Source: Gemmatimonadota bacterium (lineage in GTDB: Bacteria > Gemmatimonadota > Gemmatimonadetes > Longimicrobiales > Gaopeijiaceae). Taken from it: a DNA stretch of 10,510 nt. Position 1 is the first letter of the stretch. The number at the start of each line of letters is the position of its first letter. Positions 89 through 10,510 of this stretch are shown in pieces. The notes beneath the pieces are model-generated. The model saw only the letters and a list, made by a program, of their open reading frames with translations. It ran no database searches and was not told the DNA's origin. The stretch covers positions 1 to 10,510 of the forward strand of contig JBDHHQ010000139.1 in NCBI GenBank assembly GCA_039589315.1, in the 5' to 3' direction. The translations under genes and the position numbers were made by a program.

Positions 89-400
89 CTACTCTTCCTC
101 GCGCTCCATCCGGGTGAACACGGCCTCGTACACGAAGCCGTCCTGCTTCTCGCTGATCGGCACCAGGAAGATGGGGAGACGGCCCAGTGACCCGTGCTCG
201 AGCTCGTAGACGTGCTGCTCGAGGAAACGCTCACGTGGCCCTTTGAACAGCAGCGAAAAGGCGCTGTCCGGCCGGTCTCCCTTCATCTTCTCCGCCTCGG
301 CGAGCTCCAGCTCGAGCTCTTCGCCCTCGCCGAGGTCCACGCGAAAGACCTGGCCGATCAGCTCCGCGAAGTGCCCGTGCGTCACCTCACCTAGATCCAC
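89..400 (-). CDS. DUF6916-like hypothetical protein (103 aa)
   Basis: Motifs F..LIGQVF, L.L.EAE, AFSLLFKGP...LEQ.VY.LEH..LG.LPIFLVPI and YEAVF match my recollection of DUF6916 proteins, which usually follow tail-collar/GNAT clusters. GTG start at 400 with GGAG 8 nt upstream; TAG stop at 89-91. Confidence 0.85.
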   Translation of the reverse strand: MDLGEVTHGHFAELIGQVFRVDLGEGEELELELAEAEKMKGDRPDSAFSLLFKGPRERFLEQHVYELEHGSLGRLPIFLVPISEKQDGFVYEAVFTRMEREEE

Positions 401-404
401 GGCT

Positions 405-444
405 CTCGCTCCGTTCCGGTGACGGCGGCGCCGGACCGAGCGAG
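405..444 (-). promoter_or_regulatory. Stem-loop overlapping the putative ribosome-binding site of the DUF6916-like gene
   Basis: Minus-strand RNA CUCGCUC-GG-UCCGGCG-(7-nt loop)-CACCGGA-ACG-GAGCGAG. The outer 7 bp are perfectly paired and overlap the GGAG at 409-412. Confidence 0.35.
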
Positions 445-509
445 GACACGTCCGTGACCGAGGGTCGCGTCCTGCCGCCTGTGTTGTCGTGCTCGCGTCG
501 TCAGCGCCT

Positions 510-1031
510 TCACACCCGTTTGCGTGTTGCGGCCTTCGTCGTCGTCTTCGTGTTTGCCGCGGCCTTGGTCGTAGACGCCGTCTTGCTCTTCACGGTCCGC
601 TTCTTCTTCACGACCGGAGGCGGCTCGTGTGAGGGCACGGCCACGAAGGTGGCTTCCGCGATCTCTCCCCAGAACTCGTAGCGGATCGTGTACGTCTTGC
701 CCGGCTTCAGGCGCTGCGTGCTCAAGGTGAGGGTCTGCGGGACGTTGAGTGAGCGCCCGGCCCCGACCGCCTGCGAGACGTAGGGGTGGGGATCGTCCTT
801 GCCCGGCTTCTCGGGCTTGATCGGAGGCGGACGCATGACCTCGCGGTGGTTCTCGCCCAGCACATGCCAGTTGTGGACGTCGTCGGGGTGGCTCGCACCC
901 ACGACCCAATCGTGCTCCGCCGCGTTGTGGAGCCGGCATAGCACGTCGACCTGCACGGTCTCTTCCGCCGGTATGTGCACCACGGCCGGTGCGTCCAACC
1001 GGGCCTCGATCATCTTGCCGCTCGCCATCAT
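510..1031 (-). CDS. Hypothetical protein (173 aa), predicted beta-rich domain plus basic Lys/Thr/Ala-rich C-terminal tail
   Basis: Start reassigned from 1097 to the ATG at 1031, which overlaps the GNAT stop codon (ATGA, 1028-1031) and has GGAAGG upstream. Codons are GC3-rich. The tail reads VVKKKRTVKSKTASTTKAAANTKTTTKAATRKRV. Confidence 0.75.
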   Translation of the reverse strand: MMASGKMIEARLDAPAVVHIPAEETVQVDVLCRLHNAAEHDWVVGASHPDDVHNWHVLGENHREVMRPPPIKPEKPGKDDPHPYVSQAVGAGRSLNVPQTLTLSTQRLKPGKTYTIRYEFWGEIAEATFVAVPSHEPPPVVKKKRTVKSKTASTTKAAANTKTTTKAATRKRV

Positions 1032-1558
1032 GAGCCCGCCTTCCCTGGTTGTTGTTCGCGTATCGTGGAGGATTCCGGTACTCGGTCCGGAATCCACTCC
1101 ATCAGTACGTACGTCTCGAAGTCCTCGACGACCCGAAAGCCCAGTCGTTGGTAGAAACGGAGCGCCCCGGTGTTCTGTTTGTAGACCGAGTGCCGGAGCG
1201 GCCTATCGGCGGCAGATGCCTCGGCCTGCAGGCGGCGGAGCAAGGTGGTGCCCGTTCCGCTGTTGCGCCGCTCCGGAAGCAGAGCGATGTCGATCAGCCT
1301 CATCTCGTCCTCGCCACGATCGATCCACACCCGTCCCACCTCGACCTCGTCGACCAAGACGATCGAGTGCTCGCTCCGGGGGAAGCGGGCCCGGTAGTCG
1401 GTCTTCTGGGCCGTGAACTGCATGTCGAGGAAGGCCGCCTTCTCTTCCGGCGTCCACGGCACCATGGCCAGCTCGTCCGCGCGAGTGCTCGCGTAGACCC
1501 GCCGGAGGAAGGTCTCGTCGGCTGGCTGCGCCGGGCGAAGCGAGAGCTCGGATCCCAT
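1028..1558 (-). CDS. GNAT-family N-acetyltransferase (176 aa)
   Basis: Acetyl-CoA-binding motif A (IDIALLPERRNSGTGTTLL) and motif B (N.GALRFYQRLGF). The N-terminus LRPA..ADETFL..VYASTR.DEL...FL.MQF.AQ is typical of GNATs next to tail-collar genes. Start reassigned from 1798 to the ATG at 1558, 5 nt after the upstream stop. Confidence 0.93.
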   Translation of the reverse strand: MGSELSLRPAQPADETFLRRVYASTRADELAMVPWTPEEKAAFLDMQFTAQKTDYRARFPRSEHSIVLVDEVEVGRVWIDRGEDEMRLIDIALLPERRNSGTGTTLLRRLQAEASAADRPLRHSVYKQNTGALRFYQRLGFRVVEDFETYVLMEWIPDRVPESSTIREQQPGKAGS

Positions 1559-1563
1559 TCGCC

Positions 1564-2208
1564 CTACCCTGCTGTGGTGGTGCACAGTCCCGGCGCAGAG
1601 CCGTTCGTCGATCCGAGCTCCACCGGCCCTGATGATTCCGCCTCCTGGTGTTCCCGCGGCCAGCAGCCCTGCCAGTCGCAATAGGCATCGAAACGTCGTT
1701 CGAGCCGTTCCATCTCCGGCACGGCGCGCTCGTCCGCCGGATTGGACCAGATGTCGTGCCATCCCACCGTGTAGTGGGCCCCGGGAGGTGGGTCCCAACG
1801 GAAGGCGTCGCCCTCGACGATCTCCAGCCGTGGGCCGAAGCGCTCGATCAGGTGGGGCCCCACCAAGCGAATGACGTCGGGTGACAGCTCGACCACGGTG
1901 ACATGCTCGACGGCCCCGTCAGGGTCGCCCAGCATGGACTCCACCACCAGACCGAGCCCCAGGCCCGTGACCATCACCCGTCCTCCCCGCCGACACGCTT
2001 CCAGGATTCCCTTCCGCTGCGTCCACCACTCATAGTACAGGTCCGTCATGAAGACCTCATGAGCGTGTCTCAGACGCGTGTAGCGCCCCGGCCGTGACTT
2101 GAACGGGTCCGGGGGGGTGTCCGAGCGGCCCGGCTCGCCGACCACGAACCTCTCCACGATCCAGTCGCCGGATTCGCCGACGGGAACGCGGGATTTGATG
2201 TAGGGCAC
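1564..2208 (-). CDS. Class I SAM-dependent methyltransferase-fold / spermidine-synthase-like protein (214 aa)
   Basis: Glycine-rich motif I (RVMVTGLGLG), acidic end of beta-2 (VTVVE), EIVEGDAF and WHDIW. It fills the gap between the tail-collar and GNAT genes with 7-nt and 5-nt spacers. The GTG start is slightly uncertain because GGGAG abuts it directly. Confidence 0.8.
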   Translation of the reverse strand: MPYIKSRVPVGESGDWIVERFVVGEPGRSDTPPDPFKSRPGRYTRLRHAHEVFMTDLYYEWWTQRKGILEACRRGGRVMVTGLGLGLVVESMLGDPDGAVEHVTVVELSPDVIRLVGPHLIERFGPRLEIVEGDAFRWDPPPGAHYTVGWHDIWSNPADERAVPEMERLERRFDAYCDWQGCWPREHQEAESSGPVELGSTNGSAPGLCTTTAG

Positions 2209-2215
2209 CTCCCGA

Positions 2216-2740
2216 TTAGCTCCGGCTCGGGTATAGACCGACCAGCGCGATGATGTAGTTCAGGGTCAGAAACGGCTGCATGTTGTTGTGAGCCTGACTG
2301 GCGCCGGCGTTCCCCAGCTTTTCGAGGGTCCCCGTTGGCGTCGAGGTACTAGACGCGTAGAAGTTGACGCCCCTGCCTCCTCCCGTGGCGACCGCATTCC
2401 CGACCGGGGTGCGTTGGTTCCCAGGATTCGTGGATCCCTGGGCAGCGTGGGTATGGGACGCCATCTGTGCCTCCGAGAGGGTCACCGTCTCGGTGCCGCC
2501 CGTCTGCCCCAGCCGGCGGCTGGTCAGGCCCGGGCCCCGCCCCGGGTGCATGACCGCCCGTCCCTGCAGGTTCGGCAGCGCTGTCGTCGTGCGGCCGTCG
2601 CCGCCGTAGGTGGTGCCGATCAGGGAGAACAACGCCGTGTTCTGTGAGATGGGCAGGAGCTGACCGTTGCAGAAGGCCCAGCCGCGAGGCGCGAAGTTGC
2701 CTGCGAAGATCTTGACCTCGGCAATGAATGGTTCTGACAT
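2216..2740 (-). CDS. Phage tail-collar domain protein, MdpB/microcystin-dependent family, paralogue 3 (174 aa)
   Basis: Collar motif FIAEVKIFAGNFAPRGWAFCNGQLLPISQNTALFSLIGTTYGGDGRTT.ALPNLQGR, HTH (HxH) at 2447-2455, HNNMQP, C-terminal GLYPSRS. AGGAG ribosome-binding site upstream. Confidence 0.95.
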   Translation of the reverse strand: MSEPFIAEVKIFAGNFAPRGWAFCNGQLLPISQNTALFSLIGTTYGGDGRTTTALPNLQGRAVMHPGRGPGLTSRRLGQTGGTETVTLSEAQMASHTHAAQGSTNPGNQRTPVGNAVATGGGRGVNFYASSTSTPTGTLEKLGNAGASQAHNNMQPFLTLNYIIALVGLYPSRS

Positions 2741-2750
2741 GGCCCGTCTC

Positions 2751-3269
2751 CTACTGGCGCGAGGGGTAGATGCCGAACAGCGCGATGATGTAGTTGATGC
2801 ACTGGAATGGCATCAGATTGTCGTGGGACTGCGAGCCCCCCGTGTTCGCGACCATGTTGCTCGCCATCGGTGTGAAGCTCGGGCTGTCGTCGCAGTAGTC
2901 GGTGTTGAGAGCCTGGGCCAGACCGTTGCCTGTCGGGCTCCGATTCGCGGCGTTGGCGTTGGCCACATCCCAGGCATGGGTGTGCGACGGAAGCGTCGTC
3001 GGCGTGAGCGTGACCTTTTCCGCGCCTCCTTTCGAGCCCAGGTTACGCGGGCTCAACCCGGGGCCCTGGCCCTGGTGGATCGGGATGCGGCCCCGCACGT
3101 CGGGAAGCCCGAATGTGGTCCTTCCGTCTCCCCCGTAAATGGTCCCCAGCAACGAGAAGAGGGCGTCGTTCTGCGATACCGCGAGCAGTTGGCCGTCACA
3201 GAGCGCCCATCCCCGCGGAGCGAAGTTTCCGGCGAACATCCTGATCTCACCTACAAAGGGCTCAGACAT
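2751..3269 (-). CDS. Phage tail-collar domain protein, MdpB family, paralogue 2 (172 aa)
   Basis: Start reassigned from 3827 to the ATG at 3269 (MSEPFVGEIRMFAGNFAPRGWALCDGQ), preceded by GGAGG at 3277-3281 overlapping the previous stop. HTH at 2976-2984, HDNLMP, C-terminal GIYPSRQ. Confidence 0.95.
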   Translation of the reverse strand: MSEPFVGEIRMFAGNFAPRGWALCDGQLLAVSQNDALFSLLGTIYGGDGRTTFGLPDVRGRIPIHQGQGPGLSPRNLGSKGGAEKVTLTPTTLPSHTHAWDVANANAANRSPTGNGLAQALNTDYCDDSPSFTPMASNMVANTGGSQSHDNLMPFQCINYIIALFGIYPSRQ

Positions 3270-3280
3270 TTCGACGCCTC

Positions 3281-3811
3281 CTAGTTCCGCGAGGGGAAGA
3301 GCCCCTGCAGCGCGATGCAGTAGGTGAGCGTGATGTACGGCTGCATGTTCTCGTGACCTTGCCCGCCGCCCTGGTTGCCTATTGCACCGCTGTTGGCTTG
3401 TTGATTCAGTGCTGACGGGCCGGAGCTGTAGATCTCGGCCACGCCCGTGGACGTCTGGGCCAGCAGGTTGTTGCCCGGACCCGGCGCGTTCGCCGTCGCG
3501 CTGGTGCCGATCATGCCGTGGGTGTGCGTAGGCAGCTCCGCCACAGTGAGCGCTTGGTTCTCCTGGCCGCCCTTCGAGCCGAGCGTGTGATTGCTGCCAC
3601 CCGGAGAGGCGCCTACGTGGATGGGGGTGCGGCCCCGCAGGTCGGGCAGCGCGAAGCTCGTCCGCCCATCTCCGCCGTAGGTGGTGCCCAACAGGGAATA
3701 GAGCGACTGGTTCTGGTTGATGGGCAGGATCTGCCCGTTGCAGAACGCCCAGCCCCGCGGCGCGAAATTGAAGCCGAAGATTCTCACCTCGGCCAGGAAG
3801 GGCTCCGACAT
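3281..3811 (-). CDS. Phage tail-collar domain protein, MdpB family, paralogue 1 (176 aa)
   Basis: MSEPFLAEVRIFGFNFAPRGWAFCNGQILPINQNQSLYSLLGTTYGGDGRTSFALPDLRGR, HTH at 3518-3526, HENMQP, C-terminal GLFPSRN. Strong AGGAGG ribosome-binding site upstream. Confidence 0.95.
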   Translation of the reverse strand: MSEPFLAEVRIFGFNFAPRGWAFCNGQILPINQNQSLYSLLGTTYGGDGRTSFALPDLRGRTPIHVGASPGGSNHTLGSKGGQENQALTVAELPTHTHGMIGTSATANAPGPGNNLLAQTSTGVAEIYSSGPSALNQQANSGAIGNQGGGQGHENMQPYITLTYCIALQGLFPSRN

Positions 3812-4012
3812 CCGGTCCTCCTCTCACTGCCGTAAGAGTTGATGGTGAGGGCCCGGGGGGGGTGGCCCGTGGTGTGGTTCCTGGATGCTGCCGCCCGCCT
3901 GGAGGCAGGGGCCGCTGTGCGAGACGATGAGACGTCTCACCGCGTCTTCGTGGTCACCTCCTCTGTAGCGGCGCTCTCTTGCTGGCTCCTTTGGTGGGTC
4001 CCGGCCCTTGGG

Positions 4013-4058
4013 GGTTGGATGGGCTGGCAGCGGCTTTCCGCCCCCGGCCCACCCAACC
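4013..4058 (-). terminator. Long stem-loop downstream of the giant lipoprotein gene (terminator-like or mRNA-stabilising)
   Basis: GGUUGGGUGGGC pairs with GCCCAUCCAACC (12 bp, one G-U), with an inner stem closing an AAAG loop. It starts 50 nt after the stop codon. There is no U-tract, so it is not a canonical intrinsic terminator. Confidence 0.5.
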
Positions 4059-4108
4059 TCTCTTCGGCCTCATCCTCGGAGTTCGAACCTGAATCCCATT
4101 CGCGATCC

Positions 4109-7100
4109 CTACGGAATCGTGATGCTCGGCAACGCCGGTGCGGTGGTCGTGCACGTGATGGTGCCCGACACGGAAACCGTGGGTGGGCTCGTACCGTCTG
4201 CGCCCCCGCCGCCCGTGTTGCCATTGGTGTTCAGAATGAATTGCGGGGTCGGTGGACCCGCGCAGCTTCCGGTGGTAAAGAGATTGAAGGTCCCCGCTTG
4301 CTGGATCAGGTCGTAGCCGTTCGGCGCCGCGTTGTTGGTCAGGCTCAGGTTGAGCACGTTGCCGGCCTGATTCTGGGTCTGCGCCCGGAACGACTGCGGT
4401 ATTGGCGTGCCATTGCCCGTGTCGTTCAGCGGCATGATCTCATCCCTCCAGGTGAGATCCAGCACACCGCCGTTGCGCACGGTCACGAAGTTGCCCTGGA
4501 ACGGCGACGGGAACGGGCCGCCAAGGGCGTCCGAACCGCTCCCGACCGTGCCGTCGTTGTAGATGTTGTCCTCGACGAGGACCTCCGTGCCCGCGCTACT
4601 CCCGTCTGCTCGCATATGGAGTGCCGCGTCCCACGGCAGCGTGAAGGTGTTGTCGTGCACGTGTACCTGGGAAACGCCGCCGTCGAATCCCATCGTAAGC
4701 TGACCGAAGCCTCCCGCCGCGTGCATCACCTGATCGAACGTATTGTGAGACACGATCGCGTCGAAGGTGCCGCCGTCCGGAACGAGCGCTACCCCACCCT
4801 GCGGGAAGTTGAAGTTGAAGTCCCCAGGGGTCCCTTGCGATGCCAGGTGATCGTTCACGATGAATTGGTTACGTGAGATCACCACGTCGATGTCGCCCGT
4901 GTGGCCGGTCTGACCCAAGACCGCGATCGACGCGGTCGCGTTGTTCGTGAACACGTTTCCGAGGGCTCCGCTCGCCTGCGCCGGATCACCGATCCGTACG
5001 ACGCCGTCATGGCTTCCCGACACCACCACGCTGATGCCTCGGATGCCCACGTTGACCGTCGGCCCCGGCAGCTCCTTGTAGATCTGGTTGAACACGCTCT
5101 GCTGGACCGTCATGTCCATCGTTCCGGCCCCGGTTAGCGTCTCCACGTCGAAGCCGCGGGCGCCATTCTGAATCGTGCTGGCGATGATCCTCACCGTCCC
5201 GGTGAGGCCCCGGATCCTTACGATTCCCTCGTCCTGGTCGTCGCCGCGGCTCGCGACGTCGAACCGGTTGGTCAGTTCGAGCACGCTGTTCAGGATTTGT
5301 ATGCCGTCCCAGCTGGTGGCACTCACGCCGTCCGAGAACAGCGACCCGTTGATGGCGTTGTCGCTGATCCGGCGGATCCTGACCCCGTCCAGCGTCAAGC
5401 CACCGTTCACGTTCTCGCCGTGAATGCCATCGGCGCCGCTGCGGAAAACCGTCGACGTGTTAGACCCGTCGTTCGGATGGCTGATGTCCTGGATGTCCAT
5501 GTCCTCGAGATGGACCAGCCCTCCTGTGCTGTTCAGTCGGATGCCGTCCGTAGACGACTTGTTCGCGATCGTGCCGCCGGAGCCGGAGGCACCCGTGCCC
5601 GTGACATGGAAGGTGCCTGAGACGGTGCTCAGATTGATGCCGGTAGTAGACCCACCGCTGGAGCTCACGCTCTGGAGCGTGACCCCCAGAGTCAGCGTCG
5701 GTGCGCCCGTGATGCTCACGGCGTTGGAGGCGCCGCTGTTGATCGTGCCCGTGGTGATGTCGAACGAGCCGGTGGTGCCGTTGATGTCGATGCCCTGAGC
5801 GTTCGAGCTGCTCAGCTCATCGAAGGCCACCGCAAGGAAGCCTCCGTTGTTGGCCTCGAAGCCCCGGCCGGTGCCGGTGATCGACACGTCGTCGATCGTC
5901 AGCGTACCGACGGTACTGCCGGCGTCCGCGATTCCGGTCCCGCTCGTATTGCCGATATCGAGACCCCTGACGGTGTTGCCGGTGGCCAGATCGATGCCGT
6001 TGCCGGCGCTGGCCGTGATCGTCGGTGCGGTGCCCGTGCCACCCGCGAACGTCTGGTAGGCCGCAACGCTGTTGGCAGCGGGCGTGAAGATCCCGGCCGT
6101 TGCCGGACCGAACGCAACGCCTGCCCCGATCAGCACCTGGTCCGGGCGCAGGTTGATTCCATCGGCCTCGTTGTAGGCGCCGCTCGCCAGCGAGATGAGG
6201 TCGCCGTTCTTCGGATCGGGGACGGCGCCAGTGAGGTTGTTCGCGGAGTTGAACGCAGCGATCGACTGGAACGGGTTGCTGAACGTCCCCGTGTTGGCGC
6301 CTGTCCCACTGCCATCGATGAACCAGACCATGTCGGTGATCGAGATGAACACGGTAGCGGCGTCGGTCTTGGTCGTTCCCGCGTTGCTGAGCGTATAGGT
6401 GAAATTGTCCGTCCCCTCGAAACCGGGGGGCGGTTCGTACGTGAAGCTTCCGTTCGCCAGCAGGACGACCGATCCACCGTTGGTGGTAGCGGTCGAAACC
6501 CCGACGTTCGCCGACGACCCCTGGACTCCACTCACGACGCTCCCGGCGGGCGCGATGTCGTTGTTCTCAACGACATCGGTCGGACCGTCCGGGATGGCGA
6601 TGGCGATGTTGCCGCTCGCATTGTAACTGTCGTCGATCGCGTCGACCCTGAGCGAGTTGGTGAACGTACAGGTGGTGGTCTTCCCTGCCTCGAGAGCGAC
6701 CCCGGTCACCCCAGTGGCGTTCGGGGTCCCCGTGCCGCCGCCGCCCTGAAGCGTGCAGCCCACCAAGTCTAAGTCGAACGCCGGATTGAGCGTCTCGGTC
6801 AGGTCGTACGTGACCGCGGCGTCCAGACTGTTGAACGTGGTCTGATCCGTCGAGCTCGGGGCACCCACCGTGGTGAGCGCGAACGCTCCCACCGCACCCG
6901 TGCCGGTGAAGTTGAATGTCGCGTCCGCGTCAGAGTTCTTGATCACCGTGAGCGAACCCGGCTGGATCTGGTTCGTGAACGTACAGGTGGTGGTCTTGCC
7001 TGGCTCGACACCGACGCCGGTCACCGTGCTCGCGCCCGGCGTGCCGGTCGCGCCACCGCCCTGGAGCGTGCAGGCCACCGACACGAAATCGAAGTCCACA

Positions 7101-9106
7101 TTCGCGGATTCCGTGATGTCGAACGTCATCGACGCGTCCAGGCTACCGAACGTCTGCATGGCAGTCGCCGCCGGCGCGCCGGTCGTGTTCAGCGTGAAGT
7201 TGCCCAGATCGCCAGTGAAGTCGAAGCTCCCGTCGGCGCCCGAGTTCTTGACCACCTTGAGCGAACCGGGCTTGACCGTGTTCGTGAACGTACAGGTGGT
7301 GGTCTTGCCGCCCTCGATCACGATGCCCGTGACGGACGTGCCGCCCGGCGTGCCCGTGGGTCCGCCGCCCTCGAGCACGCACGAAGCGCTCCCGAAGTTG
7401 AACTCGGGATTGAGCGTCTCAGTCACGCTATAGGTCACGTTCGGGTTGAGCGACCCGAACGTCTGCATCGCCGTCGACGGGCCTCCGCCCACGGTGTTGA
7501 GCGTGAAGGCGCCCAGGTCACTGGTAAAGTCGAAGCCCCCGTTGACATCCGAGTTCTTGACCACCTTGAGCGAACCCAGCTTCTGCATGTTGGTGAACGT
7601 GCAGGTCGTGGTCTTGCCCGGCTCGATGTCGATGCCCGTGACGGATGGGCCACCCGCGCCCGTCGCTCCGCCGCCTTGCTTGAGGCAGACCGCACTGACG
7701 AAGTCGAAGGCGGGATTCGGTGTCTCGGTGAGGTCGACGTCAACTGTGGCGTCCAGACCGCTGAACGTCTGCATGTCCGTCGCCGCCGGCTGGCCCGTGG
7801 TGTTGAGCTGGAATGCGCCGATGCCGCTGGTTGCGCTGAAGTCGAAGCTGCCGTCGGCGTCGGAGTTCTTGATCACCTTGAGCGCGCCCGGCTTCTGTGC
7901 GTTGACGAACGTGCAGGTGGTCGTCTTGCCCGGCTCGACCACGATGCCCGTGACCGCTGACCCGCCGGAGCCTGTGCCCCCGCCACCCTCCAGTAAGCAG
8001 GTCGCGCTCACGAAGTCGAAGTCGGGATTGAGCGTCTCGCTGACGTCATACGTGGTGGTGACGAGCAGACTGAAGCTCTGCATGCCCGTGGCTACCGGCG
8101 CGCCCGCGGTGCTGATCTGGAAGGCGCCGCCGATTCCGCCCGAGCCCGTGAAGTCGAACGTCCCGTCCGACCCCGAGTCCTTGATCACCTTGAGCGTGCC
8201 GAGGGACGGCTTGACGATGAGTGTCTCCGAACCGGACGCCGCCCCTACTGTCGCCGTGATGGTCACGTTGGTGTTCGCCACGACCGGCGTGAGCCCGTCC
8301 GAACTGGCCGTGGTGGTGGACTGCCCCAACCCATCGGTGGGACCCGTGGTGGCCGGGTCCACATCCGCGTTGGCCGGATGGCTGCTCTCCCAGCCGACGT
8401 CCACACCGGGGAGCGGATTGGCGTACAGGTCCGTGACCGTCGCCGTGTAGGCGACCGACTCGCCCGGCGTGTCGGCGTCGAAGATCATCGCGCCCGGAGG
8501 CGTGACGACAACCGCACCCGCGATCCCCGTCTCGACCCGCCACTTGAACAGGTAGTTGTTGTCGACCACGAACCCGCTGAAGCCCGGCCCCACATCCTTC
8601 AGGTCCCTCTGCTTCGCCACAGCTTCCAGATCCACCCATCCGAGCACGACGCCGACCACGCTCAGCACCGCCCGGTAGGTCATCCCGATCTGGATGTCGC
8701 CGCCGTTCGTGCTCTGCCAGGTGACCGAATAGTCCTCCTTGTCGGCGTCGAGCCGGATGATCTCGGGGTGGGAGGCGCTGCTGAGGGTGCGGATGGCTGT
8801 GTGGGATGGATAGCCTTCGCACGCTTCGAACCCCTCACCCGTACCACCGTTGATCTTGCAGATCTCGATCGTCGGGTTGAGCGACAGGAGGTTGGGATCG
8901 AACGGGTCGTCGAAGTTCTTCTGGCTCTTCTTGACCGTCGGCGACAGCCAGTAGAAGCCGTCGACCGGGCCGCTGTTCGCACCGTCGCCGATGTCGAAGG
9001 TGACGTCGATGTCGTCGAGGGGCGGCGTGACACTGGAGTCGTTGGTGCACGTCGCGAGCAACAGCGACAGGGCCACGATGGCGATGCGTGAGGGGCGGAG
9101 GGACAT
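4109..9106 (-). CDS. Giant multidomain surface lipoprotein, adhesin-like (1665 aa): Ig-like, 5x CnaB/SpaA-like, cadherin/Big_9-like and right-handed beta-helix regions
   Basis: Start reassigned from 9199 to the ATG at 9106, giving signal MSLRPSRIAIVALSLLLAT-C20. Ig-like segment (YTATVTDLYANPLPGVDVGWESS) at about 8205-8515. Five repeats at 6656-8200. Big_9-like AIDDSY...NGSFTYEP..GFEGTDNFTYT at about 6335-6646. Then VWFID...GTFSNPFQSI...GD.I.LASGAY followed by Gly/Asn/Thr/Ile-rich beta-helix-type coils. Confidence 0.9.
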   Translation of the reverse strand: MSLRPSRIAIVALSLLLATCTNDSSVTPPLDDIDVTFDIGDGANSGPVDGFYWLSPTVKKSQKNFDDPFDPNLLSLNPTIEICKINGGTGEGFEACEGYPSHTAIRTLSSASHPEIIRLDADKEDYSVTWQSTNGGDIQIGMTYRAVLSVVGVVLGWVDLEAVAKQRDLKDVGPGFSGFVVDNNYLFKWRVETGIAGAVVVTPPGAMIFDADTPGESVAYTATVTDLYANPLPGVDVGWESSHPANADVDPATTGPTDGLGQSTTTASSDGLTPVVANTNVTITATVGAASGSETLIVKPSLGTLKVIKDSGSDGTFDFTGSGGIGGAFQISTAGAPVATGMQSFSLLVTTTYDVSETLNPDFDFVSATCLLEGGGGTGSGGSAVTGIVVEPGKTTTCTFVNAQKPGALKVIKNSDADGSFDFSATSGIGAFQLNTTGQPAATDMQTFSGLDATVDVDLTETPNPAFDFVSAVCLKQGGGATGAGGPSVTGIDIEPGKTTTCTFTNMQKLGSLKVVKNSDVNGGFDFTSDLGAFTLNTVGGGPSTAMQTFGSLNPNVTYSVTETLNPEFNFGSASCVLEGGGPTGTPGGTSVTGIVIEGGKTTTCTFTNTVKPGSLKVVKNSGADGSFDFTGDLGNFTLNTTGAPAATAMQTFGSLDASMTFDITESANVDFDFVSVACTLQGGGATGTPGASTVTGVGVEPGKTTTCTFTNQIQPGSLTVIKNSDADATFNFTGTGAVGAFALTTVGAPSSTDQTTFNSLDAAVTYDLTETLNPAFDLDLVGCTLQGGGGTGTPNATGVTGVALEAGKTTTCTFTNSLRVDAIDDSYNASGNIAIAIPDGPTDVVENNDIAPAGSVVSGVQGSSANVGVSTATTNGGSVVLLANGSFTYEPPPGFEGTDNFTYTLSNAGTTKTDAATVFISITDMVWFIDGSGTGANTGTFSNPFQSIAAFNSANNLTGAVPDPKNGDLISLASGAYNEADGINLRPDQVLIGAGVAFGPATAGIFTPAANSVAAYQTFAGGTGTAPTITASAGNGIDLATGNTVRGLDIGNTSGTGIADAGSTVGTLTIDDVSITGTGRGFEANNGGFLAVAFDELSSSNAQGIDINGTTGSFDITTGTINSGASNAVSITGAPTLTLGVTLQSVSSSGGSTTGINLSTVSGTFHVTGTGASGSGGTIANKSSTDGIRLNSTGGLVHLEDMDIQDISHPNDGSNTSTVFRSGADGIHGENVNGGLTLDGVRIRRISDNAINGSLFSDGVSATSWDGIQILNSVLELTNRFDVASRGDDQDEGIVRIRGLTGTVRIIASTIQNGARGFDVETLTGAGTMDMTVQQSVFNQIYKELPGPTVNVGIRGISVVVSGSHDGVVRIGDPAQASGALGNVFTNNATASIAVLGQTGHTGDIDVVISRNQFIVNDHLASQGTPGDFNFNFPQGGVALVPDGGTFDAIVSHNTFDQVMHAAGGFGQLTMGFDGGVSQVHVHDNTFTLPWDAALHMRADGSSAGTEVLVEDNIYNDGTVGSGSDALGGPFPSPFQGNFVTVRNGGVLDLTWRDEIMPLNDTGNGTPIPQSFRAQTQNQAGNVLNLSLTNNAAPNGYDLIQQAGTFNLFTTGSCAGPPTPQFILNTNGNTGGGGADGTSPPTVSVSGTITCTTTAPALPSITIP
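6656..8200 (-). repeat. Five tandem intragenic repeats of about 309-315 nt (about 103-105 aa)
   Basis: Each unit reads G.L(K/T)V(I/V)K.S...F.F...(T/S)E(T/S).N..F......C...GGG.TG...VTG...E.GKTTTCTF(T/V)N. The GKTTTCTF-coding DNA recurs near 6670, 6985, 7295, 7605 and 7915. Confidence 0.95.
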
Positions 9107-9485: not shown

Positions 9486-9582
9486 TGGCGGGAGCGTGTG
9501 GGAATCGAACCCACCTATCCGGGTTTTAGCCGGACAAGCTGGTTTTGAAGACCAGTCGAGACACCAGTCCCGATCCGCCCCC
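9486..9582 (-). tRNA. selC: tRNA-Sec (selenocysteine tRNA, anticodon UCA), 97 nt
   Basis: Folds as GGGGGCGG AT CGGGAC-TGGT-GTCTCG A CTGGT-CTTCAAA-ACCAG C TTGTCCGG-CTAAAAC-CCGGATAG GTGGG-TTCGATT-CCCAC ACGCTCCC G CCA. This gives the bacterial 8/5 acceptor/T-stem geometry, a 6-bp D-stem with 4-nt loop, UCA anticodon at 9546-9548, a long variable arm, discriminator G and an encoded CCA. Confidence 0.97.
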
Positions 9583-9840: not shown

Positions 9841-10509
9841 TCACCGGTCTCGGCGGCCAGCAGCCCGGCCAGCTCGTCGAACTCCGCCCACGTCCTCACG
9901 AGCGTCGTCCCAACGAAGCTTCCACCACCACGTCACCAGCCCACAGATGGCGGCCCCGAGACCGACGCCCAGGGCCCACCAGGTGCCGCCCAGCCACCAG
10001 GCGATCGCGGTGTACCCGGCCAGGAACGCCGGGAACGCCAGGATGACGGTGGCCAGCTTTATGGTCGACACGGCCTCGTATGCCGGGCGCATGCGCCCCA
10101 CGGCCAGCCGGGGAAGGTGGTACGGAATCCACCACAGAACGATTCCGGCCAGCGCCACCGGCATCGTGAGACCGAGGACGATGCCCTTGGTGACGATGTA
10201 CCAGAGGACCTTGCGAGTGCGGTAGCGCCGGGGGATCTCGGCGTCGCCGGCGCCCAGGACCCCGAGCAGCTTCGCGTATCGGCGTACGGCGTCGGTCACG
10301 CGGCGATGCCGCTCCGGGTCGTTGGCCCGCAGCCAGGCCAGCCCCCGGGCGAATTGCCGAAGCCGTGGCAATCGGTCGCCCAGGGACTGTCGGGTGCGCC
10401 ATGCCGTGAGCCCCTTCTCCCGCGCGTACATGCGCTCGGCGACCTCGACCAGCTCCCTGTCCTCACTCTCGGCGAAGTTGAGGGTGAGCTTCTCCAGTGC
10501 CTGGCTGAT
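9841..10509 (-). CDS. 3' part of a membrane protein, probably a PlsC-like phospholipid/glycerol acyltransferase; 5'-truncated by the window and possibly frameshifted near 9888
   Basis: The frame is open from the window edge (ISQALEKLTLNFAESEDRELVEVAERMY...). It has several transmembrane helices (LGLTMPVALAGIVLWWIPY; STIKLATVILAFPAFL; WWALGVGLGAAICGL) resembling the C-terminal membrane region of such acyltransferases. The catalytic HX4D motif is not in the window, so the product call is inferred. Confidence 0.6.
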   Translation of the reverse strand: MSQALEKLTLNFAESEDRELVEVAERMYAREKGLTAWRTRQSLGDRLPRLRQFARGLAWLRANDPERHRRVTDAVRRYAKLLGVLGAGDAEIPRRYRTRKVLWYIVTKGIVLGLTMPVALAGIVLWWIPYHLPRLAVGRMRPAYEAVSTIKLATVILAFPAFLAGYTAIAWWLGGTWWALGVGLGAAICGLVTWWWKLRWDDAREDVGGVRRAGRAAGRRDR

Positions 10510-10510
10510 C

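Follow-up and report, generated by a model that had tools for sequence, protein, structure and literature searches.

A contig of 10,510 nucleotides from a Gemmatimonadota bacterium of the family Gaopeijiaceae (JBDHHQ010000139.1, assembly GCA_039589315.1), analyzed here in full and called the window, encodes on its minus strand a cassette of eight genes: a giant lipoprotein, three short tail-collar proteins, a methyltransferase, a GNAT-type acetyltransferase, a small Lys-tailed protein and a DUF6916 protein. The cassette is a real, widespread and undescribed cellular system, and this copy defines its methyltransferase subtype. New are the pairing of the methyltransferase with one type of surface-protein head, the exchange of GNAT for a formyltransferase in Bacteroidota, and the twin-arginine translocation (Tat) or Sec-type signals carried by some members. 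As to function, the best explanation, which we hold with even weight for and against, is that the collars form an exported heterotrimeric fiber tip that works on or with the giant surface protein.

No description of the cassette or of DUF6916 was found in the literature searched (subscription journals lay outside its coverage), nor was a functional study of MdpB/COG4675. The 'microcystin-dependent protein' annotation of MdpB/COG4675, which we take to denote the same stand-alone collar family, is a label without a function. Those passages of the Solibacter and Caulobacter K31 papers that deal with such genes merely list them (PMC3174227, PMC4221894), and a term search of the available text of a preprint on F. 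johnsoniae colonization gave nothing on collars.

Conservation of the cassette

The GTDB locus set, the best 80 of 522 relatives of collar 1, spans at least 12 phyla, with four loci unassigned. All three collars are encoded at 78 of the 80 loci, in the gene order of the window at 77, and they are accompanied by GNAT at 69, DUF6916 at 54, the methyltransferase at 11 and the Lys-tailed protein at 8. In the 46 loci that have 8 kb on both sides, the triad is always present, GNAT is found in 44, DUF6916 in 38, and an open reading frame (ORF) of at least 900 amino acids lies within 6 kb in 42, the ORFs being counted by size alone and possibly including shadow frames. The recurrence of the triad, GNAT and DUF6916 with a large exported protein, stated in a preliminary description of this DNA, is borne out by this survey of gene neighborhoods; a lipoprotein as partner and both additional genes, which that description regarded as special to this copy, in fact all recur elsewhere. 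Five annotated plasmid loci hold the same core with differing partners, among them an autotransporter (Ruegeria), a lipoprotein with cap (Deinococcus), an SLH protein (Paenibacillus) and a CBM3 protein (Spirosoma).

Two variants of the locus deserve a separate mention. On an Azospirillum oryzae plasmid (L218, 5452-17537) the triad, GNAT and DUF6916 lie among lasso-peptide-type genes (B2, PqqD, asparagine synthetase), together with 2-oxoglutarate oxygenase and glycosyltransferase genes and with no giant gene in view. At 15 mostly alphaproteobacterial loci, a protein of 400-430 amino acids without a Pfam match is encoded between collar 3 and GNAT (e.g., L075, 11652-12932, and L215, 15126-16343).

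A cellular system

The cassette is cellular, and not a prophage, tailocin or extracellular contractile injection system (eCIS). The source genome (95% complete) yielded no sheath (PF04984), baseplate J, gp19 tube or terminase (PF03237) in the profile search, and the PHROGs matches of the eight window proteins are limited to tail/collar, methyltransferase and acetyltransferase families. Flanking sequence had been named beforehand as the place where a virion locus might reveal itself; the 130 flanking ORFs from 21 loci include no head, tail or lysis PHROG and one transposase. The absence of capsid, terminase, sheath, tube and baseplate genes, first noted for the window, agrees with these searches. 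No adjacent capsid genes of a viral genome are found at the locus, where 88 nt of contig remain beyond the last gene, that of DUF6916. The closest phage relatives of the collars are at most 40% identical, and an IMG/VR scan with two class-2 patterns confirmed no relative.

It could nonetheless be that the collars are orphan fibers supplied in trans to an eCIS, type VI secretion system (T6SS), tailocin or prophage, which we consider highly improbable. An eCIS tube gene is present in 22 of 50 carrier genomes (drawn from the 80 GTDB loci with preference for long contigs; completeness unreported), and an eCIS is found elsewhere in the genome of all four order-level kin tested. T6SS genes occur on other contigs of the source genome (C91, C105, C33, C83 and C2), with two VgrG and several VipB matches, and the available part of a study of Acaryochloris marina reports eCIS-like genes co-induced in strain MU13 (PMC11633204). 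VipB, the T6SS sheath, was found in 9 of the 50 carriers, and 23, cultured isolates among them, have neither the eCIS tube (PF06841) nor VipB (PF05943), which contradicts obligate co-occurrence with a contractile system. The lack of the four profile matches in the source genome, the flanking ORFs and the distance of the phage relatives likewise speak against a supply in trans.

The collar triad

The window collars score 97-102 bits against Collar (PF07484; cut-off 24) and are the only matches to this family in the source genome. They share 50-52% identity among themselves, and same-class relatives are 55-76% identical to them. H96 and H98 are invariant in the alignments of all three classes, the C-terminal ends are class-specific and a distal loop is variable; in a collar tree of 81 rows, classes 1 and 2 each make up one supported side of a branch. 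Judged by these alignments, the three collars are ancient classes of fixed order with invariant HxH sites, and therefore they probably form one metal-bound heterotrimeric needle. That this needle would be knitted by a six-histidine metal site is probable.

Phage long and short tail fibers (8KEC, T4 gp12) are the closest relatives of the collars in the PDB. The tips of T4 gp12/gp37 and of cyanophage A-1(L) (PDB 1OCY, 8KEC) have the Collar domain and the HxH metal motif in common with the cassette proteins, but they are homotrimers that continue into a shaft and are assembled on a baseplate, whereas the cassette collars stand alone and belong to three fixed classes. The tripartite tail of the DSLV2/Aquatic Virophage 1 lineage is likewise encoded by three consecutive short PF07484 collar genes and has no fiber shaft. 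According to the accessible portion of the virophage study, the DSLV2 triad co-purifies as a heterotrimer and constitutes a 1:1:1 needle that binds lipopolysaccharide, with the collar modeled as docking on another protein (PMC12724248). The virophage triad is viral and lies beside capsid genes, whereas the cassette is cellular and lies beside the giant, GNAT, DUF6916 and methyltransferase genes; the two were compared by description.

Two arrangements of collar genes were observed in passing. Locus L165 (3346-8077) has two full triads, placed in tandem about a single set of methyltransferase, GNAT and DUF6916. A PF13458 periplasmic-binding-protein-like gene recurs right after collar genes (L216, 7081-8241; L223, 8940-10073; L247, 6148-7263), and its Deinococcus copy has a twin-arginine-type signal.

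The giant lipoprotein

The giant is the only window protein whose N-terminus includes a hydrophobic stretch, a single one that ends in LLATC. With this signal peptide and a lipobox cysteine that is kept in three close orthologs (Cys20), it qualifies as a predicted lipoprotein, although Thr at -1 makes the lipobox atypical. The N-terminal domain (~20-290) is lineage-type and has 19 matches in the source genome; the middle consists of five SpaA_4 immunoglobulin (Ig)-like repeats followed by Big_9 at 826-920, and the remaining Pfam assignments in the window are Collar for the three collars, GNAT and DUF6916. Residues ~922-1665 look like a right-handed beta-helix head. In the ESM Atlas, residues 920-1665 match a cluster of beta-helix proteins first (0.94), and PF13229 matches 2 of 25 aligned relatives; the window giant itself matched no beta-helix Pfam family, and a PDB sequence search with the head alignment gave nothing useful. 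The view of this protein as a beta-helix lipoprotein, already taken from the sequence at the outset, agrees with these results.

Close orthologs have the stalk in common (67-69% over residues 20-330) and carry different C-terminal heads. All seven order-level kin that have the triad keep an adjacent ortholog of the lipoprotein with the giant's N-domain and cap. More broadly, 49 of 90 loci have the Big_9 plus beta-helix cap module, and a C..P or P..P tail, a loose pattern, closes 44 of the 51 giants with a known end.

The methyltransferase and its head subtype

The structural model of the methyltransferase has a class I, spermidine-synthase-like fold (TM-score ~0.4-0.5 to SpdS chains). Identity as a spermidine synthase, i.e., an aminopropyltransferase, was rejected on score (17.4 bits vs a cut-off of 472), as was membership of a defense system, for which PADLOC gave only one weak match to a methyltransferase domain; a PDB sequence search with the alignment of this enzyme yielded nothing useful. 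A scan seeded with the enzyme alone, of which the best 80 of 364 loci were taken, separated a close group of 42 loci from 38 distant ones. A collar gene is in view at 37 of the 42 (four of the remaining five are short upstream) and at 0 of the 38. Among 60 scorable loci with a complete triad, 25 combine the enzyme with a C-terminal head of the window type, 35 lack both and none has one only; this count includes some nearly identical rows, and its head profile derives from the giant of the window itself. The methyltransferase is a subtype marker, inherited together with a single type of C-terminal beta-helix head.

A search of 300 genomes of the source family gave neither the methyltransferase nor the window-type head. 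Because both are missing from these genomes, the nearest triads are acidobacterial, and orthologs of the giant keep the stalk with other heads, we infer that a module of head, triad and enzyme may have been acquired sideways and fused to the host stalk.

Rickettsia has cytoplasmic lysine methyltransferases dedicated to the beta-helical surface protein OmpB. To judge by the fold search, the cassette enzyme belongs to another family, but the pairing with a beta-helical partner is similar. The Lys-tailed protein was rejected as a substrate of the cassette methyltransferase, which is present at only 4 of the 8 GTDB loci that encode the Lys-tailed protein. Separately, a B12-binding radical S-adenosylmethionine gene adjoins three methyltransferase-type cassettes (L049, 12364-14082; L045; L052), and in one Bacteroidota locus a relative of the methyltransferase (L243, 7439-7969) neighbors one lone collar gene and proteins sorted by the type IX secretion system (T9SS).

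Acyltransferases and export signals

The top PDB hits of the cassette GNAT are protein N-terminal acetyltransferases, matched over the C-terminal half only, and the rimI profile gives 34 bits against a cut-off of 86. Because its acetyl-CoA motifs are intact, its PDB hits are of this kind and the window collars start with M-S/A-E/D-P-F, GNAT may acylate the conserved Ser-Glu-Pro-Phe start of collars without a signal as these mature, an assignment that we rate somewhat short of even.

The Bacteroidota were represented by 37 loci (36 regions from 34 of 42 new hit-bearing genomes in a sample of 300, plus a Spirosoma plasmid). Cassette GNAT is present at 5 and an Fmt-like formyltransferase at 14, never together; in this phylum the formyltransferase replaces GNAT. 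Tat- or Sec-type signals occur on collars at 8 of the 37 loci (scored by eye, two of them doubtful), and in L224 two of the three collar chains have one. One or other acyltransferase is found at 0 of the 8 signal-bearing loci vs 19 of the 29 signal-less ones (Fisher p 0.001, uncorrected for kinship).

Fold comparison of DUF6916 (VIA) indicates a YcgR-N/PilZ-like barrel (Z 8.1, root-mean-square deviation 2.4, 84 aligned), near the common-fold level; Foldseek gave no match at E 0.001, and a PDB sequence search with the family alignment nothing useful. At least two DUF6916 copies are present in 20 of 91 loci, and in 17 one copy has a twin-arginine signal, as scored by eye. The source assembly has TatC and a single DUF6916; the window operon has no twin-arginine carrier subunit of the kind present in other cassettes. 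Complexes exported by Tat hitch-hiking, such as hydrogenase HybO/HybC, bear the signal on some subunits only. The L224 collars and the DUF6916 pairs show such partial signaling, but no Tat-signaled member was found in the window or its genome. Signals on some collars or DUF6916 paralogs suggest that the complex is exported in folded form.

The missing export signal on the window collars is the main gap in the fiber-tip model. The preliminary description, which proposed the collars as a tip or accessory of the large protein, overlooked it, while its account of a domesticated, non-phage collar module with conserved linkage stands; DUF6916, there taken as a chaperone or adaptor, has a predicted YcgR-N/PilZ-like barrel fold. 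If the triad, GNAT and DUF6916 were an internal maturation factor for the giant that never reaches the surface, the lack of signals on the window collars and the clustering of modifying enzymes around cassettes would be accounted for. The existence of Tat- or Sec-signaled collars and DUF6916 paralogs at other loci, and homology to fiber tips with a variable distal loop, make that distinctly unlikely.

A model for the cassette

In the fiber-tip model, the three collar classes, one copy of each, would assemble before export into a cytoplasmic needle that resembles the T4 gp37/gp12 tip. This needle would then cross the envelope in folded form, either by Tat hitch-hiking or along some other route that bypasses Sec. 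The giant would provide the stalk through its lipid anchor and Ig repeats, and the head through its beta-helix. DUF6916 would be an adaptor, and in many cassettes its Tat-signaled paralog could carry the complex out. The methyltransferase may be dedicated to heads of this subtype, with either the collars or the not yet exported head as its substrate. Action of the collar complex outside the cytoplasm is likely; that the needle is the attached receptor-binding tip of the giant lipoprotein we would affirm no sooner than deny. In its fullest form the proposal is of a new class of surface organelle, a phage-derived, N-acylated, metal-knitted heterotrimeric needle that leaves the cell in folded form and sits on the beta-helix head of a giant single-chain adhesin, and whose exchangeable modules of head, tip and enzyme cross phyla, this copy being the methylated-head subtype on a host-lineage lipoprotein stalk; this we offer tentatively, as less likely than not.

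Several results weigh against the fiber-tip model. They include the restriction of export signals in the window to the giant (by scan for hydrophobic N-terminal stretches) and the lack of a Tat-signaled DUF6916 in the source genome and in most one-copy loci. No large ORF lies within 6 kb at 4 of the 46 long-flank loci, and no giant gene in the 12 kb flanks of the Azospirillum plasmid locus. Because partners use unrelated export and anchoring systems (autotransporter, SLH, T9SS-type), some without a beta-helix module, no universal docking domain is evident; at L047, L076, L139 and L144, further sequence lies C-terminal of the head. Class 3 requires two changes on the collar tree, and single collars and near-identical collar triplets occur in Bacteroidota. 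The enzyme-head covariation amounts to just two independent tree changes (sign test p 0.5). Both acyltransferases are absent from 10 of the 29 signal-less Bacteroidota loci, and covariation of collar N-termini with enzyme type was rejected, since formyltransferase loci show both Met-Asp/Glu and Met-Ser starts.

Part of this evidence would suit a collar trimer that is exported or released and acts alone, as a diffusible glycan-binding probe, matrix cross-linker or receptor-blocking phage decoy, sharing its regulation with the giant but standing free of it, an alternative we regard as unlikely. Partner architecture and export route vary, some loci lack a large neighbor, and a collar-domain protein, possibly part of a triad, is listed in the accessible part of a report on the R. 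pomeroyi exoproteome, from culture supernatant (PMC4949626). Expression data from A. marina can be read in the same direction. In the available portion of that study, AM1_3684, 3686 and 3687 and the collars 3688-3690 shift together (log2 -3.2 to -4.0), and AM1_3691, the next gene, responds more weakly than the triad (log2 -1.2 only; PMC11633204). The AM1_3684-3691 genes, which include an acetyltransferase, were matched to our locus L113 by gene order only. The co-regulation in this homologous locus also answers the earlier expectation that the cassette be co-expressed, and both it and the exoproteome protein count for the fiber-tip model as well. Against a free trimer stand the association, in several phyla, with a giant exported protein (42 of 46 loci) and the co-inheritance of the methyltransferase with one head type, hard to explain by co-regulation alone.

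Gene layout and context of the window

The eight genes were listed correctly, and as co-oriented, in the preliminary description, which overlooked a tRNA-Sec gene (Table 1), the sole Rfam match in the window. From the giant gene onward, the intergenic gaps are 297, 11, 10, 7, 5, -4 and 109 nt, and the ORF coordinates confirm the spacing of 11 nt or less among the six genes from 3811 to 510. GC content is uniform over the cassette (63-68%).

Table 1. Features of the window
Feature	Positions	Strand	Remarks
DUF6916, signal-less form	89-400	-	Pfam 97.5 bits; YcgR-N/PilZ-like split barrel
BsuPI-like beta-sandwich protein, Lys/Ala-rich tail	510-1031	-	Small family; optional, 8/80 loci
Cassette-specific GNAT	1028-1558	-	Acetyl-CoA motifs intact
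Class I S-adenosylmethionine-dependent transferase	1564-2208	-	Spermidine-synthase-like fold; cassette subtype marker
Collar class 3, 174 aa	2216-2740	-	H96-x-H98, LYPSRS end
Collar class 2, 172 aa	2751-3269	-	H96-x-H98, IYPSRQ end
Collar class 1, 176 aa	3281-3811	-	MSEPF start, H96-x-H98, LFPSRN end, no signal peptide
Stable hairpin directly 3' of giant stop	4000-4108	-	-55.1 kcal/mol, z -3.1 vs 100 shuffles
Giant lipoprotein, 1665 aa	4109-9106	-	Signal with Cys20, N-domain, Ig-like repeats, Big_9, beta-helix head
tRNA-Sec gene	9486-9582	-	380 nt upstream of giant gene

The tRNA-Sec gene is a possible landing site for the cassette. No duplicated tRNA-Sec end or att copy was found in the assembly and no integrase gene in the window; a genome of the same genus (G001) lacks the triad, but its contig breaks just before the position equivalent to the tRNA-Sec gene. 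The hairpin behind the giant gene has no U-tract, and the terminator search made no call there; from its predicted stability it may be an mRNA stabilizer or an attenuator between the giant and the collars. A promoter scan of the window found no promoter. Beyond the cassette lies a 5'-truncated membrane-type ORF at 9841-10510 (minus strand) with no Pfam match; its ortholog in G001 is 89% identical, and an extra gene is inserted right behind that ortholog.

Significance

Stand-alone 'tail collar' triads are usually read as prophage debris, yet they show tight linkage in at least 12 phyla. The enzyme swap, the Tat signals and the pairing of methyltransferase and head give specific tests in cultured strains, namely Ruegeria TM1040, Acaryochloris marina, Deinococcus ficus and Paenibacillus. 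If the fiber-tip model is true, the cassette would represent a modular device for adhesion of a new kind, and an example of phage fibers domesticated by cells.

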